A stretch of 64,000 nucleotides of DNA, from IMG/VR virus record IMGVR_UViG_3300037851_000671, positions 154,773 through 218,772 of that record, one strand, 5' to 3'. The notes beneath the pieces are model-generated. The model was not told the DNA's origin and did no database searches. It saw only the letters and a program-made list of their open reading frames with translations. A program made the translations under genes and the position numbers. Positions 10,789 to 63,791 of this stretch are shown piece by piece. The stretch comes from a virus. Taxonomy: Duplodnaviria > Caudoviricetes. Position 1 is the stretch's first letter, and every line of letters starts with the position of its first letter.

Positions 10789-10792
10789 AAAC

Positions 10793-10909
10793 GGCAACGA
10801 AATTATGTAGACAATAGGCCGGCTTTTTACACCGTTTCCAAAGCCTCCGATGGATTCGAACCACCTAGCGCCAATTGATGATAGATGAAATGTCTACGAG
10901 CGCGTTGCC
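10793..10909 (-). ncRNA. modular Y-RNA-like element E2 (T-arm plus hairpin cargo)
   Basis: GGCAACG-CG..GTAGACA-TTTCATC..GGTGGTTCGAATCCATC..TGTCTAC..TTT-CGTTGCC. Confidence 0.75.
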
Positions 10910-10919
10910 AGAAATTAAA

Positions 10920-11413: not shown

Positions 11414-12122
11414 TCTTTTCTTAGAGAGACTTGCAGAGGGCTTGGATTCAACATCAAAGCTTACTCATGCTTTATTGTCTGAGATCAGAGATTCTGAAGC
11501 GGATTTTGCCTCCATCAAAACCGAGCTGTCAATACTAAGAGAGAACGTTAAAGGACTGTCAGAGATTGTCAGGGAAGGTAATGGAGCCACATCTATTCTC
11601 ACACGTATTGCGCTTATTGAGGCGCGAATACAGAACATTGAGAAGTGGATGGAAACCCACATCGATCTTCATCAGGAGGAAAACGCTGACGTGAGCAAGG
11701 CTCAGGAACAGCTGAAAGACCTCGATAAGAAGATCGCCGCGTTAACTTCAGTTGTCAATGAACTAAAATCTCACGCCGATGATATTGAGAAGAAGAGGCG
11801 CGAGAGTATAGACCGCGAGCTAGAGCTTCAGCACGAGGACAAGAAGAGCAAGATAGGGGTAGCTGCCGAAAGACAGCAGACCATTATCAAAGTCCTTGGT
11901 GCCCTGTTGTTGGCCGTGCTTGGCGCTGCTGGTGGCTATTTAGCGAATTCTTGTCATGGGACCGCCGGAGCGGCGCAGCCAAGGAGCGTTATTGTTGCCC
12001 CCTCGGCTGCCCCTATCCTAGCTCAACCGGCCGAGCCGATCAAGGAGAATCTGACTCCTCAACCGCCGTCACAGCCGCTTCTTCAGCCTTCGGTTTCTGC
12101 TGTTGCAAAACGAACTCGTTGA
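11388..12122 (+). CDS. coiled-coil protein with C-terminal transmembrane segment
   Basis: heptad-rich body; hydrophobic 'IIKVLGALLLAVLGAAGGYLA'. Confidence 0.55.
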   Translation: MATSKTTNDLFLERLAEGLDSTSKLTHALLSEIRDSEADFASIKTELSILRENVKGLSEIVREGNGATSILTRIALIEARIQNIEKWMETHIDLHQEENADVSKAQEQLKDLDKKIAALTSVVNELKSHADDIEKKRRESIDRELELQHEDKKSKIGVAAERQQTIIKVLGALLLAVLGAAGGYLANSCHGTAGAAQPRSVIVAPSAAPILAQPAEPIKENLTPQPPSQPLLQPSVSAVAKRTR

Positions 12123-13686
12123 GATCAAAATCCCTGATCGCCTTGACAATGTTGATACCAACATACTCAAGGTTCTTGAACAGTGCCGGTGTCATAGTCT
12201 GATACACGGTGACACTACGATCACCGAAATCAGCGCTGTGCCACTGGTAGTTGCTGGCATTGATAACCCAAAGCTCTGCCTCTGGGTTGACCTTCTTGCG
12301 ATACTCAGCCCAAGCCCTTGTCAAAGGAGTGCCAGCGTTCTGCTGCTCATCAGTGATCAAAACCATCAAATCAAGCTTACGCTTGCTGTTGGTTGCGTTC
12401 TCGATTGCCAGAGAAACCGTAGTTCCACCGGCAACCCTGAGAGCCAACAGATTCTTAACCTGATTCTTGCGATTCAGGCCAGTGATCCTTGGGCACATAC
12501 CGCTAGCGTAGCCGTAACGACCTCCGTGACCCTCCTCATACAAGGCGTTATCAAAAGTTGTGAACCAAAGGTTTGTAGCCTTTAGGAATGGCACTGCCAA
12601 CAGACCAGCAGTCTGAAGAGGCTCCCCGTTCATAGAACCAGAGATATCAACAGACACACCAACTCTCTTACCTTCAATGGTAGGCATTGGTACGTCCAAT
12701 GTTGCAACCATTGCATCGATAAGAATGTCCTTGACCTTTTCGTGCTTGGCGAAAATGTATGGCTTTGCAAAGTCAAGCGGAAGAGAGCGGCCATTCTGAA
12801 CCTCTCCCATCTTTAGCTTGAGCGCGGTCAGTCCATCCGTGGTGTCGAAGACATTGCGCTCTTCGAGAGAACGGATGTTGAGCAACAGAGCTGTCAAACC
12901 CATCTGAGTCATCGAGGCCATTGCAAGAGGACCCTTGAGTCCCGCAAAACCCTTAACAACATCCCATGGGATTTCATTTTCCAGCATCATATCAGCGATC
13001 TTCTTTGGATCACTGAGCTTCTTCATCATCTCAACAGCAACCTGCTTGGAACCGGTTGCCTCGGCCTTACGACCGTCCAAGACATACAGAATGACGTTTG
13101 CACGACCGTCTGTATAACGTGGGTGAACCAAACGAACGAGCTGATTCAAAGCAGTTGGATACTTGAGCGTGAAGTTTTCAAGCTTCTTATATCCCCACTT
13201 CTCCATTGCCGCGCGCACCCACTTCTGAGCACGCGAACCAAAACCACGACCCAACTGCTTGCTCTTGCACAGCTCCACGAACTGGATCAATTGACCAGGG
13301 TGGAATGTGCTAAGCAATGCAATAGCTGCCTGCTTATTTACAGGAGAATCCAAGAACTGCTCGTTTGCAGATCCGGCAATGGCAGCAAGAGCTACCTTAA
13401 CCATACCTTTCATATGGCTATTGCGGGCAAAGCAAGCCGCCTTGAGCAGGTACTCAGGGTCCAGCTTCGCGCGGTCAATGAGCAACGGCAGAGCTTCTTT
13501 TGCCGCGTCATCAACAGAGCGATAAAACTGGTTCTTAAGAATACCAGTCAAAAGAACACGAGCAACCGAATCTTCAGGAAGCTCATTCTTGGACAGATAT
13601 TCCGTCTTGGTCACAACCTTCTCAGGCTGACCCAACAGAGCCTTAACAAAAGAAGTGGACTTAACCTTGTTTGTTGTCTTATTCAT
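12040..13686 (-). CDS. rsr: Ro60/TROVE-domain RNA-binding protein with vWA domain
   Basis: 548 aa; TROVE-like helical N-part ('DPEYLLKAACFARN', 'LVRLVHP', 'IPWDVV', 'LTALLLNIRSL'), vWA MIDAS 'VDISGSM', 'GGT', 'LITDEQ'. Confidence 0.88.
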   Translation of the reverse strand: MNKTTNKVKSTSFVKALLGQPEKVVTKTEYLSKNELPEDSVARVLLTGILKNQFYRSVDDAAKEALPLLIDRAKLDPEYLLKAACFARNSHMKGMVKVALAAIAGSANEQFLDSPVNKQAAIALLSTFHPGQLIQFVELCKSKQLGRGFGSRAQKWVRAAMEKWGYKKLENFTLKYPTALNQLVRLVHPRYTDGRANVILYVLDGRKAEATGSKQVAVEMMKKLSDPKKIADMMLENEIPWDVVKGFAGLKGPLAMASMTQMGLTALLLNIRSLEERNVFDTTDGLTALKLKMGEVQNGRSLPLDFAKPYIFAKHEKVKDILIDAMVATLDVPMPTIEGKRVGVSVDISGSMNGEPLQTAGLLAVPFLKATNLWFTTFDNALYEEGHGGRYGYASGMCPRITGLNRKNQVKNLLALRVAGGTTVSLAIENATNSKRKLDLMVLITDEQQNAGTPLTRAWAEYRKKVNPEAELWVINASNYQWHSADFGDRSVTVYQTMTPALFKNLEYVGINIVKAIRDFDLNEFVLQQQKPKAEEAAVTAVEESDSP

Positions 13687-14236: not shown

Positions 14237-14899
14237 TCAAAAATCGTCCATCTGATCTGCGAATTTCGTAATTAGGTTTGACAGGGTATGAGGCTCACGT
14301 TTAATGAGTGCTACATATTCTGTTTTAGAGTTCACAAGCCAGTTCACAAGATCTACTGTGTTTATCGCATCAATCTCAGCAGAGTGCGCCCCAATCTTTG
14401 GAGTTATTCCAATACCAATCAGGAAGTTATTGAGACCAAACTTTACCTTTGGCTCTCCTTGAGCTGCTGCAATTTTTTCAGCAAGTCCATGTTTCTTGAC
14501 AGCTAATTGTGCGTACTGTTTTGTACACAACCAAAGGTCTGCCGGAAATTCTTTGTCACATGACTTCCAGGCCGCGTGACAGAACTTCCTATCAAAAGGT
14601 GCGTTGTGAGCGTAGATACATCTATGCGCTCTGGTTTTGCCATCCTCTTCAAAAAAGGCATCGATTATGTCAATGGCCTCTTTCAATGGGATGCCAACAT
14701 CAAGGTCATCGACAATTTTACCCTGTATTTCGAGGGCTTGTGGACTTGCCCGCTCAGGATTATCAACCTTTATGTCTACTGATAGCTGCTTTCCTGTAGA
14801 AAGTCTTATGACAGAGAATTGGTTAATTTGATGCCATTCACATTTTAGACCAGTTGTTTCAGTGTCTATAATGTAGTATTCTATATCATTCGCGGCCAT
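14237..14899 (-). CDS. DEDDh 3'-5' exonuclease (DnaQ-like)
   Basis: 'IIDTETTGL', 'AHNAPFD', 'HSAEIDA'. Confidence 0.85.
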   Translation of the reverse strand: MAANDIEYYIIDTETTGLKCEWHQINQFSVIRLSTGKQLSVDIKVDNPERASPQALEIQGKIVDDLDVGIPLKEAIDIIDAFFEEDGKTRAHRCIYAHNAPFDRKFCHAAWKSCDKEFPADLWLCTKQYAQLAVKKHGLAEKIAAAQGEPKVKFGLNNFLIGIGITPKIGAHSAEIDAINTVDLVNWLVNSKTEYVALIKREPHTLSNLITKFADQMDDF

Positions 14900-36540: not shown

Positions 36541-36616
36541 TGGTACGCCTGGTAGGGCTCGAACCTACAACCTCAGCTTTAGGAAAGCTGCACTCTATCC
36601 ATTGAGTTACAGGCGC
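36541..36616 (-). tRNA. tRNA-Arg(CCT)
   Basis: loop TTCCTAA, encoded CCA. Confidence 0.92.
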
Positions 36617-42688: not shown

Positions 42689-43084
42689 CTACACAGCCCG
42701 CTCAACAGCTACTTCATTATCGAACTCAACATCACGCAAACCATAGTTGATGATCACGGGCTCGCTGTATGTGGTTGATTTCATCCACTTAGGAATATAT
42801 CCCTCATGGTTTGAAAGAAGAAGCTGAAGTGCCTTGTTAAAAGCCTCTCTGATATGTCCACGCATATCAAATGTAACTTTGACGGTGCGAAGGTGGGCCA
42901 ATCGCTTCTCGGCAATCATACGCCCTTTAGCTTTGACAAACTGGTCTACAGGAGAGCAGAAAGAAAAAGCAGCTACATGCGTCTGAGGATTGGCGTCTTT
43001 ATTGGGACGCAACATCGCCACTGTTACATACCCTAGACGGTCATAGCCAGGAACAATCACCCTGAAATATCCAAACTTAGTCAT
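42689..43084 (-). CDS. hypothetical phage protein
   Basis: 'FSFCSPVDQFVKAKGRMIA' motif. Confidence 0.5.
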   Translation of the reverse strand: MTKFGYFRVIVPGYDRLGYVTVAMLRPNKDANPQTHVAAFSFCSPVDQFVKAKGRMIAEKRLAHLRTVKVTFDMRGHIREAFNKALQLLLSNHEGYIPKWMKSTTYSEPVIINYGLRDVEFDNEVAVERAV

Positions 43085-43121
43085 GTTGATTTCTCTTTGT
43101 TGTTTCTTTGTTGAGGGTTAG

Positions 43122-43192
43122 AATCCACTGTCAGATTTGAACTGACATCTTCACCAATACCATAGGTGGCTCTACCGTTGAGCTAAGTGGAT
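43122..43192 (-). tRNA. atypical tRNA, probably Thr(GGT)
   Basis: good acceptor, D and T arms; anticodon arm lacks position 26 and has a 4-bp stem. Confidence 0.55.
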
Positions 43193-50246: not shown

Positions 50247-51398
50247 TCACAAGCTGGTCCATGTGTAAGGTAGCTTTCTGTTCAATGCTCGTAACGCGCT
50301 ACTAACACCCTCTGTCGCTGGCTCGGGCATTATGACAGTGGGAGCTGTTGTGGCTGTTAAAGCAGCTCCAGGTGATTGCTTGCGTTCGTATACTTCAACA
50401 GCATAGAGCCAGGTCTTTCCAGCCTCAGACAATGGGAAACCTTTGTTCTTTGCTTCTTGGAATACAACAGGATCAATCCTTTCACCAGTTGCGCCCTTCA
50501 GATCATGAGGAGCAACACGCAGCTGGTATTCTTTACCATTCCAGTTGACTATCTCTGTGTAACCAACTGGCTTCTGACCAATCCATTCACGTTGCTTTGT
50601 CCTAGCAAGCTCACTCACAGACTGATGATCTTTCACTGGAACAAATTCATTGGATAGAGATGGAGCTGCCGGGGTAACAACCGAATCCTGAGGTGCATCG
50701 CTTGGTTGCCAATTTGGATTTGGTTCAGAGAATGGTGGTGTAGCTTGTCCTTGAATTGATTGTATCGCTTCATCAATCTTGGACTTGATGCCACTTGGAG
50801 GTCCGTTAGCTACCATTGACCTTACCTTGTCTGGCATGATTCTTCCGCCTTCAGCCAAACCAGAGTTCTGTTTGACTGCCAAATCCTGATACTGTGGATT
50901 TTTGAACACCGCCTCTGGGTGTTGTTTCTTGTAGGCTTCTTGGAAAGCGAGAGAGGCATATATTGAACCATCAGGGTTCTTGTACCCTCCAAAGTTCATG
51001 AGATAGATATCACCAGCAGTTTTGTTCTGTACAGGGAAACGCTGAAAGAACTTCTCGGTCCACTTCAAAGACTCTGTTGGCGGAAGGAGATAGAAATTCT
51101 CCCAAAGATGATCTGTGATACCAAGCATTTGAGCTGTTTTCTTGATAAGCTGGTTGAAACCTTGAGCAATGATTTTCCCGCCCTGAATATTACGAGCAGC
51201 AGGATCGAAACCTGATTCATTATTGATAACAGCAGCAATGTTGTATGGGTTAGCATTCAGACGTTGACACATCTGAACAAACTGAATCCAGAACTCTGCT
51301 GGCAAACCAGACCCCTTAGGACCTGAAGAGGAACTAACGGCTGCTTTGTAGAACAGCTCAGAGTGTATTGCTGCTATAGAAGCTTTTCTCATACACAT
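50247..51398 (-). CDS. lysozyme-like / lytic transglycosylase domain protein
   Basis: 'AAVINNESGFDPAARN', 'AQGFNQL', 'DIYLMNF'. Confidence 0.72.
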   Translation of the reverse strand: MCMRKASIAAIHSELFYKAAVSSSSGPKGSGLPAEFWIQFVQMCQRLNANPYNIAAVINNESGFDPAARNIQGGKIIAQGFNQLIKKTAQMLGITDHLWENFYLLPPTESLKWTEKFFQRFPVQNKTAGDIYLMNFGGYKNPDGSIYASLAFQEAYKKQHPEAVFKNPQYQDLAVKQNSGLAEGGRIMPDKVRSMVANGPPSGIKSKIDEAIQSIQGQATPPFSEPNPNWQPSDAPQDSVVTPAAPSLSNEFVPVKDHQSVSELARTKQREWIGQKPVGYTEIVNWNGKEYQLRVAPHDLKGATGERIDPVVFQEAKNKGFPLSEAGKTWLYAVEVYERKQSPGAALTATTAPTVIMPEPATEGVSSALRALNRKLPYTWTSL

Positions 51399-54999: not shown

Positions 55000-55074
55000 T
55001 GGTGAGCCGAAAGGGAGTTGAACCCTCAGTCACAGGGTAAGAACCTGCTGGTTTAGCCATTAACCGACCGGCCC
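55000..55074 (-). tRNA. tRNA-Lys(CTT)
   Basis: loop TTCTTAC, encoded CCA. Confidence 0.82.
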
Positions 55075-55204: not shown

Positions 55205-55207
55205 TTG

Positions 55208-55279
55208 TCGGGGTGGCCAGGATCGAACTGGCGACTTCTAGTTCCCAAAACTAGCGGACTACCGCTGTCCTACACCCCG
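55208..55279 (-). tRNA. tRNA-Pro(TGG)
   Basis: loop TTTGGGA, C1-G72, A73. Confidence 0.9.
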
Positions 55280-55789
55280 TAAATCTAAATCATGTCCAGC
55301 ATGTAATGCTGCGTGACAGTTTTTGCAAAGAAGAACACATGTTTCAATTTCAGTTTTAACGTTTTCCCAACACCAACCTCTTGAATATTTGAAATTAGGA
55401 TCTTTTTTGGAAGGATCTAGATGATGTATATCTAAAGCTGCTTGATATTTATCATATCCACACGCTTTACATTTACCTCCAAGAAACTCCCTGGCTCTAT
55501 TTTTATTTTCTTGGCCCAGTTTAGTGGTATATTTGTTGTGACACCTACCACAAACTGTTGTTTTGTTACCATAGAATTTTTCTGGATTTGTTTCTCCACA
55601 ACTACATTTACGAGGGCGTGGTATTTTTGAGTCCTTGTTTTCTATTTTCCCATGTGGCCCACGTAACAAAACAAGTTTTTCTTTTTGTACCCAGTATCTA
55701 ATTGTTGTTTGTGAACATTCTAGTTCTTTTGCAAGTTCATTTGTACTATATCCATTTTCAACTAGTTTTTTTAGTTTCTCGATATCCAT
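55259..55789 (-). mobile_element. HNH homing endonuclease with N-terminal HTH
   Basis: 'GGKCKACGY..ALDIHH..CVLLCKNCHAALH'; stop codon lies in the tRNA-Pro D-loop. Confidence 0.85.
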
Positions 55790-56470: not shown

Positions 56471-56622
56471 AAGGAACGAAAAAGCGAAAGACCAGTTTTT
56501 TCGCGCTCTACCAGACTGAGCTATATGCTGATGTTGGGCTTTATGAGCCTTGTCAGCATAGTTGGATTCGGACCAACGACCTCGATCTCCTAAAGATGAA
56601 TGATCTTTCTAACGCGTTCCTT
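56471..56622 (-). ncRNA. modular Y-RNA-like element E6 (circularly permuted tRNA cargo)
   Basis: AAGGAACG/CGTTCCTT; GATC-ATTCATC; T-arm GTTGG-TCCGAAT-CCAAC; acceptor TATGCTGA/TCAGCATA with inserted hairpin; D-arm GCTC-AGTCTGGTA-GAGC. Confidence 0.9.
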
Positions 56623-58139: not shown

Positions 58140-58289
58140 AGATAACGAAAAGGGCTCAGACGAAGTTTTTTCCAGCGTCCAGCCGCCGCATGTTGCCCGG
58201 TTTTACCCAGGTGGTGCGGCGCAGGGAAATCGAATCCCTGTCGTTTGAATTATCGGTTCAAGATGAATCGTCCAAAAAGCGCGTTATCT
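58140..58289 (-). ncRNA. modular Y-RNA-like element E8 (permuted acceptor with encoded ACCA)
   Basis: AGATAACG/CGTTATCT; GGACG-ATTCATC..CGTCT; T-arm AGGGA-TTCGATT-TCCCT; GCGCCGC-ACCA-insert-GCGGCG. Confidence 0.82.
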
Positions 58290-63609: not shown

Positions 63610-63791
63610 AGGATAACGAAAGATTGTCAGACGGGTTTTTCAACACCAGTCTGCCCATTGTTTTCAGAAGAATTGAGACTTGTTTTTACCGGCACAACCA
63701 GCATCTCAATTTGGCGGGCAGCTAAGGAATCGAACCTTAATGTCTATACGTTGGAAATATTAGATGAACCATCTAACTATGCGCGTTATCT
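63610..63791 (-). ncRNA. modular Y-RNA-like element E11 (permuted acceptor with encoded GCCA)
   Basis: AGATAACG/CGTTATCC; AGATGG-TTCATC..CCGTCT; T-arm TAAGG-TTCGATT-CCTTA; GCTGCCC-GCCA-insert-GGGCAG. Confidence 0.82.

Follow-up and report, generated by a model that had tools for sequence, protein, structure and literature searches.

The Y RNA of the YrlA type from M. smegmatis, whose acceptor stem is 7 bp long, is an RNase P substrate: it is cut at the acceptor 5' strand in vivo, and M1 RNA cleaves it in vitro (Chen et al., 2014, RNA 20:1715, PMC4201824). Its 82-nt 5' half encodes one C, to which CA is added to give a CCA end, and both halves co-precipitate with Rsr; possible aminoacylation of this RNA was explicitly mentioned (PMC4201824). 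RNase P cleavage, exonucleolytic nibbling and CCA addition were summarised for it by Wang et al. (2018; 10.1101/312249), according to whom most YrlAs mimic tRNA in a closed, circularly permuted form. Mimicry of tRNA is seen in many Y RNAs of bacteria and phages, and the only documented cleaved, CCA-ended case is that of M. smegmatis.

The RNAs described here, among which the elements E8 and E11 are the main subject, were compared with M. smegmatis YrlA by its published description (primer sequences from PMC4201824 had no exact match in the genome contig database). They resemble it in being Y RNAs with a permuted tRNA-like head and an acceptor helix of tRNA length, and its one encoded C corresponds to the C74-only state of most open modules in this phage group, whereas E8 and E11 encode the whole CCA. 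Unlike the plain loop of the mycobacterial RNA, the acceptor is here interrupted by a hairpin-plus-leader cassette; E8 and E11 have no D-arm, the presumed phage docking frame differs from GNCGAAN0-1G, and the genes, known from sequence alone, are phage-borne, multi-copy and placed within tRNA arrays. Closed YrlAs (RF02553; S. Typhimurium, Ro60-encoding mycobacteriophages and Gordonia phages) share with the present family a topology of closing stem, variable hairpin, T-arm, acceptor stem, optional D-arm and A-rich return strand, as well as the association with a Ro60/Rsr gene, and two members of the family, E4 and E6, match the RF02553 model; in closed YrlAs, however, a short loop seals the acceptor and there is no RNase P cut (PMC4201824).

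The order T-arm, acceptor 3' strand, CCA, insert and acceptor 5' strand is also that of the two-piece tmRNAs of alpha-proteobacteria and some cyanobacteria. Such tmRNAs are matured by excision of the intervening segment; E8 and E11 differ from them in lacking a G3-U70 pair, a tag reading frame and pseudoknots, and in having a Y-RNA-type closing stem distally. In the permuted tRNA genes of Cyanidioschyzon merolae (Soma et al., 2007, as cited in 10.1101/312249) the 5' half is preceded by the 3' half, and the junction of the acceptor strands is opened by RNase P together with a 3' endonuclease. The anticodon loop of these tRNAs is restored by a splicing-type circularisation, whereas E8 and E11 have neither an anticodon loop nor a BHB motif.

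The processing mechanism proposed below is thus already known for one bacterial Y RNA, that of M. smegmatis, and the phage open-acceptor Y RNAs alone reveal no new mechanism. What is new is the phage setting in tRNA arrays, the trailer-hairpin-leader cassette, a 6+6 design without a D-arm and, in some copies, a fully encoded CCA. The opened-acceptor design recurs in phage genes, can bear a fully encoded CCA and appears to be under selection for genuine pre-tRNA flanking signals. It provides defined substrates with predicted cut sites for RNase P, 3' trimming and CCA addition on Y RNAs generally, and bears on the possible importance of a free CCA end for Ro60 function and on the use of Ro60 by tRNA-rich giant phages. 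Our preferred reading, to which we give a probability of about 60%, is that E8 and E11 are open-acceptor YrlA-type RNAs matured to two-piece RNAs with a CCA end.

A family of YrlA-like RNAs in a giant phage

The window analysed is the terminal 64 kb of an IMG/VR viral contig of 218,772 bases (G000), which derives from an uncultured giant phage of a freshwater metagenome and is 51% complete by CheckV estimate. The 31 tRNA genes at 28-64 kb of the window all lie on the minus strand. Interspersed among tRNA genes were 12 minus-strand YrlA-like members with one common frame, all 12 frame copies of the contig falling inside the window, and the elements adjoin tRNA genes at a spacing of 1-4 nt. The 5' part of the frame reads xAACGCG, 5-10 nt and GAYNNTTCATC, and the 3' part consists of the four-base partner of GAYN, 5-9 nt and TTTCGTTx. 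The inner helix formed in this way covaries within the family, from GAUC/GGUC to GACG/CGUC. The literal GNCGAAN0-1G motif that published YrlAs carry near the 5' end was absent from the frame, with GAYNNTTCATC, a putative variant docking sequence, at the aligned position. A D-arm is present in the paralogs E4, E6 and E10 and absent from E8 and E11, and members devoid of any tRNA-like head also occur.

Searches with the Rfam YrlA model (RF02553; gathering threshold of 69 bits) returned E4 at 42.5 bits and E6, over its full length, at 37.8 bits, both sub-threshold, and no match to E8 or E11 at E <= 1. The same model gave 44 and 42 bits for YrlAs located just upstream of annotated Ro-like genes in the Gordonia phages Neville and Cashline, respectively, and the acceptor of the Gordonia phage YrlAs checked (L181 3607-3723; L183 3799-3895) was closed. 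Scores of 42-44 bits for such Ro-adjacent RNAs indicate that the gathering score is too strict for phage members, which standard annotation would thus miss. At E8 and E11 there was no RF00005 or ARAGORN tRNA call, the closing frame standing in place of an anticodon arm. Judged by frame and predicted fold, E8 and E11 belong, as divergent members without a D-arm, to a phage YrlA-type non-coding RNA family.

Outside G000, IMG/VR pattern scans placed the family in three further contigs only, G001 (169 kb), G002 (208 kb) and G003 (336 kb), with chance matches making up most of the result of the frame-pattern scans. Searching a metagenome for the E8/E11-specific 3' frame yielded six chance matches and zero family members, and a BLAST search for orthologs in GenBank phages gave no match. 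The comparative set is small, consisting of nine modules from four related contigs (G000-G003).

Architecture of E8 and E11

The E8 element (58140..58289, minus strand), an open-acceptor YrlA-like RNA, is closed by an outer stem in which AGATAACG (58282-58289) pairs with CGTTATCT (58140-58147). The 5' strand of the inner helix, GGACG, and the conserved ATTCATC (58262..58273) belong to the family frame, the presumed Ro60-docking module; GGACG pairs with the 3' strand CGTCT (58158-58162), which is preceded by an A-run (58163-58171). Within this frame, all on the minus strand, lie a T-arm with a 6-bp stem and the loop TTCGATT (58222..58240; pair probabilities of 0.98-1.0), the acceptor 3' strand CGCCGC (58216-58221) and an encoded A73-C74-C75-A76 (ACCA; 58212-58215). 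These are followed by an intervening cassette (58190..58211), composed of a 5-bp hairpin, CCTGG-GTAAAA-CCGGG (58196-58211), and the leader-like spacer CAACAT (58190-58195), which has A(-2) and U(-1) at its end. The acceptor 5' strand GCGGCG (58184..58189) comes next, with the predicted RNase P site between 58190 and 58189; downstream of the strand are CTGG, the A-run and CGTCT, with no D-stem. The minimum free energy (MFE) fold of E8 comprised the T-arm, the acceptor and the hairpin (z = -3.9).

The E11 element (63612..63790, minus strand) follows the same plan, with tRNA-Met abutting upstream and tRNA-Leu downstream. On the minus strand it has a T-arm with the loop TTCGATT (63722..63740), the acceptor 3' strand CTGCCC (63716-63721), an encoded G73-C74-C75-A76 (GCCA; 63712-63715) and the acceptor 5' strand GGGCAG (63651..63656). 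Its intervening cassette (63657..63711) contains a two-tier hairpin of 41 nt (63671-63711), whose sequence is kept in the G003 ortholog, and an A-rich spacer of 14 nt ending in AAU (63657-63670); RNase P is predicted to cut between 63657 and 63656. Folding of the E11 core alone recovered the T-arm, the acceptor and the hairpin, and in the full-length RNA the tRNA-like fold was 1.6 kcal/mol above the MFE.

These analyses bore out the letters and coordinates that the initial annotation had given for the two elements, on the minus strand, together with the permuted order of T-arm, acceptor 3' strand, ACCA or GCCA, hairpin, spacer and acceptor 5' strand, and the missing D-stem. The mismatch that it had described between positions 7 and 66 is real, position 66 being paired instead with the base preceding the T-stem, which results in a 6-bp T-stem on a 6-bp acceptor; the 6+6 stack of 12 bp is that of a tRNA minihelix. 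The first acceptor pairs are G1-C72, C2-G71 and G3-C70 with discriminator A73 in E8, and G1-C72, G2-C71 and G3-C70 with discriminator G73 in E11. In agreement with the earlier statement that the two RNAs are not tmRNA, both have G3-C70 and neither received a tmRNA call from ARAGORN or Rfam. The sequence GGTAAAA, pointed out as common to the two hairpins, does occur in both, but is not kept in the orthologs, and it was discarded as a common functional motif for that reason.

The E8 gene occupies a gap of 220 nt with a small same-strand ORF on each side, and no convincing promoter or terminator of its own was found in that gap. Such a setting, like the spacers of 1-4 nt between the elements and adjoining tRNA genes, would fit a role as processing punctuation, in which the heads are cut so that adjoining tRNAs or mRNAs of a long transcript come apart, with no further role for the released pieces. 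This explanation is most improbable, since neighbouring tRNAs supply cleavage sites already and headless family members occur; moreover, in three genomes a Ro60-like gene is found alongside the conserved closing frame, which argues that the RNA itself is the product.

Open acceptors and their pre-tRNA-like flanks

When all T-arm-bearing elements of the family were parsed, two groups were distinguished by acceptor architecture. In the closed group, a loop of 3-16 nt seals the acceptor stem, as in published closed YrlAs. The open group has a 7-nt acceptor strand pair with a longer insert between the strands, and comprises nine modules: E6, E8 and E11 in G000, four in G001, one in G002 and the E8 ortholog in G003. 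The third open-acceptor member of the window, E6 (56479..56622, minus strand), reads A73-C74-A-A and has a 23-nt cassette and a full D-arm. The insert measures 23-26 nt in seven of the nine modules and follows one common plan, namely N73, C74, 0-2 nt, a hairpin of 4-6 bp and an A-rich stretch of 6-7 nt, which in these seven ends in AU (AC in one). The structure of the cassette hairpin is kept across the open modules and its sequence is not.

Each open core folded alone into T-arm, acceptor and hairpin, and the RNAalifold consensus was the same; the structural alignment used as input was built by segments because MAFFT put the 5' acceptor strands of the open cores out of register. In the nine modules, 60 of 63 cells of the acceptor strands were paired, as compared to an average of 34.9 and at most 53 when partners were exchanged among elements (5000 shuffles), and at least three different Watson-Crick pair types occurred at six of the seven acceptor positions. 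The acceptor/T stack is of 6+6 bp in E8, E11 and the G003 ortholog of E8, and of 7+5 bp in the other open modules.

The flanks of the open acceptors were compared with those of 121 genuine tRNA genes from G000-G003. Position 74 is C in 117/121 tRNA genes and 9/9 open modules, U(-1) is found in 84/121 and 8/9, A(-2) in 71/121 and 8/9, and a full CCA in 21/121 and 3/9, respectively. Against base composition, the probability was about 8e-7 for C74 in all nine modules, about 1e-6 for AU at -2/-1 in seven of them, and about 2e-4 for CCA in three (0.02 given C74). The R73-C74 signature is absent from the closed-loop members of the family. The modules with full CCA are E8, E11 and one in G001 (50762-50908), and one further module reads CCG. 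Complete CCA is encoded by 11/31 tRNA genes in G000, 4/31 in G001, 1/26 in G002 and 5/33 in G003, as compared to two of three open modules in G000 and one of four in G001; overall, its frequency in open modules did not differ from that in tRNA genes (Fisher p = 0.37). By these signals, the open cassette mimics the pre-tRNA 3' trailer and 5' leader of this phage group.

Bacterial RNase P RNA pairs with C74/C75 of its substrate and favours U at -1. Given a C74/U(-1) signature like that of the tRNA genes and an intact 12-bp stack, the machinery that processes tRNA ends is expected to handle the open modules, which are probably substrates of RNase P and of 3' maturation. The alternative is that they remain uncleaved Y RNAs, in which the cassette lengthens a closed acceptor arm for a structural or ligand-binding purpose, as in long-stem cyanobacterial YrlAs, and C74, CCA and the AU spacer are left over from an origin in tandem tRNA genes and do not serve processing. 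It draws on the fact that most published YrlAs are closed and not RNase P substrates (PMC4201824; 10.1101/312249), and on an insert length that varies from 23 to 84 nt in the family and reaches 125-150 nt in P1 and P2, two permuted RNAs that have no frame. We consider it possible, though unlikely: the excess of C74 (9/9) and AU (7/9) over base composition is large (p about 1e-6 each), the closed-loop members lack R73-C74, and neither E8 nor E11 has a recognisable donor tRNA. That C74 and AU are kept in paralogs with otherwise unrelated acceptor and hairpin sequences points to ongoing selection and not to a relic.

A search for a recent donor tRNA or isotype of E8 and E11 among the tRNAs of the four contigs ended without a candidate, the best identity being about 65-70% and mostly due to the T-loop.

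In the tRNA genes themselves, the occurrence of C74 in 117/121 but of CCA in only 21/121 suggests a group-specific 3' processing signal or a reliance on CA addition. The usual 3' continuation of tRNAs in this phage group is C-T/A-A-A (window 28000-64000, loci L173-L179). Tandem CCACCA follows tRNA-Arg CCT (36541-36616) and tRNA-Lys CTT (55000-55074), with the tail ACCACCAA, and E8 reads ACCACC; with about 2 of 11 CCA-encoding genes affected, the tandem may be due to chance.

Two further minus-strand RNAs of the window, P2 (62403-62650) and P1 (60447-60636), are permuted and tRNA-like without a Ro-type frame. Each has a T-arm, an acceptor 3' strand, a structured insert of 125-150 nt, an acceptor 5' strand, a D-arm and a closing remnant of the anticodon stem. 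P2 reads T73-C74, P1 is without C74, and the two inserts have GCTAAAGCCTG in common.

Conservation of the encoded CCA

Clear orthologs of E8 and E11, with nearly identical frames, were identified in G003. In the E8 ortholog the acceptor is kept, one G-C pair having changed to G-U, and is followed by G-CGG without CCA; its insert of 84 nt is unrelated to the E8 cassette. In the E11 ortholog the CCA letters and the hairpin are almost unchanged, with the CCA out of tRNA register: the T-loop is degenerate (TGCGATT), the CCA comes directly after a 6-bp acceptor, and in tRNA register the sequence reads C73-C74-A-A or C73-A-A-A. As these orthologs, the only ones found, have no in-register CCA, the encoded CCA is not a conserved feature, contrary to what the initial annotation had expected of homologs; the parts conserved are C74 and the leader. 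The encoded CCA is best described as a facultative state, as in the phage's own tRNA genes, about one third of which encode CCA, and it does not define a special chargeable class.

The absence of CCA from the orthologs would also be expected if the modules stayed uncleaved, and so would the behaviour of the E11 hairpin, the sequence of which is strongly kept from G000 to G003 next to a drifting tRNA-like part. This better preservation of sequence in the hairpin than in the tRNA-like part of E11 suggests that the hairpin has a function of its own and is not a discarded spacer.

The initial annotation had proposed that the two RNAs are potentially chargeable. Some synthetases can charge minihelices, and E8 and E11 offer a 12-bp acceptor/T minihelix, a discriminator and an encoded CCA, from which a charged tRNA mimic held by Ro60 could arise if the processed CCA end were aminoacylated. 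The same possibility was raised for M. smegmatis YrlA (Chen et al., 2014, PMC4201824), with no charged Y RNA reported there or by Wang et al. (2018; 10.1101/312249). For E8 and E11 nothing indicates aminoacylation, and charging has very little probability: both are without an anticodon arm, a D-arm, G3-U70, G-1 and a long variable arm, their acceptor sequences fit no resident tRNA isotype, isotype identity could not be assigned, the discriminator is A in E8, G in E11 and different again in the orthologs, and the CCA is not conserved. Of the interpretation as a whole, the permuted order, the 12-bp stack and the shared frame were upheld, and the pre-tRNA-like flanks and a phage-encoded protein of the tRNA-nucleotidyltransferase family agree with the proposed processing; the conserved CCA and aminoacylation were not upheld.

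The Ro60-like protein and the proposed maturation

The presumed partner protein of the family is encoded by a gene of 548 amino acids on the minus strand (12040..13686). The predicted protein gave an above-threshold match to Pfam vWA_Ro60, a nearly full-length match to phrog_850 (E 8.7e-15) and a match to PDB RO60, and by tblastn it matched actinophage genes annotated as 'Ro-like RNA binding protein'; the Pfam TROVE model gave no match to this ORF. Orthologs with 71-72% identity adjoin family members in G002 and G003. In G000, E1-E3 follow the ORF on the same strand at a distance of about 1-1.4 kb, within the 4-kb criterion used for YrlA (Chen et al., 2014), and E8 and E11, also on the same strand, lie beyond it, at about 44 and 50 kb from the gene, respectively. 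The closing frame presumably docks on the phage Ro60-like protein.

An E2-type member is kept in 4/4 contigs (10792-10910 in the window; G001 43006-43124; G002 192738-192860; G003 184341-184457), with a T-arm, the inner helix GACA/TGTC and a distinctive acceptor loop in which GGAAA occurs. Because it adjoins the Ro60-like gene in G000 and G003, this type may be the primary partner RNA of the Ro60-like protein.

The contig G001 (IMGVR_UViG_3300035208_002255), which has inverted terminal repeats and was called 100% complete, carries 10 family RNAs and tRNA arrays without a Ro60-like or PolyA_pol gene. A contig from the same sample, G005 (IMGVR_UViG_3300035208_003026, locus L192), has a Ro60-like gene (71% identity) and none of the family RNAs; G001 and G005 may therefore be two parts of one genome of about 380 kb, which would make the completeness call wrong, and the occurrence of the RNAs without Ro60 in G001 is not claimed.

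According to the preferred reading of E8 and E11 as RNAs matured to two pieces, the closing frame, as the presumed docking site of the Ro60-like protein, would carry a circularly permuted head in which the T-arm is stacked on the acceptor helix, and this helix would be interrupted by a cassette arranged like the junction between two tRNA genes, with N73, C74, 1-3 nt, a hairpin and an A-rich leader ending in AU in succession. RNase P would cut 5' of the acceptor 5' strand. The hairpin-containing tail would be removed to the discriminator or to C74 and the end then completed to CCA, or, in E8 and E11, trimmed back to the encoded CCA instead. This would yield a Y RNA in two pieces, joined through the acceptor helix and the closing stem and bearing a free CCA end. 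In some bacteria RNase Z is inhibited by an encoded CCA, and the stable hairpin in the tail of E8 and E11 could block exonucleolytic trimming. That the free acceptor-CCA end of two-piece open-acceptor Y RNAs is functionally used while docked on the Ro60-like protein is a quite improbable extension of this model; such use might consist of charging by a synthetase, or of service as a decoy or sensor for enzymes and host defence toxins acting on the tRNA 3' CCA, and E8 and E11 would be ready for it without CCA addition.

G000 encodes a protein of 249 amino acids of the tRNA-nucleotidyltransferase family (G000:C1:834-1583, L180), with a PolyA_pol head domain and a match to the phrog tRNA nucleotidyltransferase, and a gene of this family is also present in G002 and G003. 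The 249-aa protein is far shorter than cellular CCA-adding enzymes, and in G002 the homolog is part of a 504-aa frame at about 3 kb from the Ro60-like gene of that contig. The ORF at 14237-14899 was considered as an RNase T-type trimmer of tRNA ends and rejected, as it matches the exonuclease family of phage DNA polymerases; RtcB was not found in the G000 contig sequence. An HTH-HNH endonuclease ORF (55259-55789, minus strand; Pfam HNH, 24.3 bits) ends inside or beside tRNA-Pro (55207-55279).
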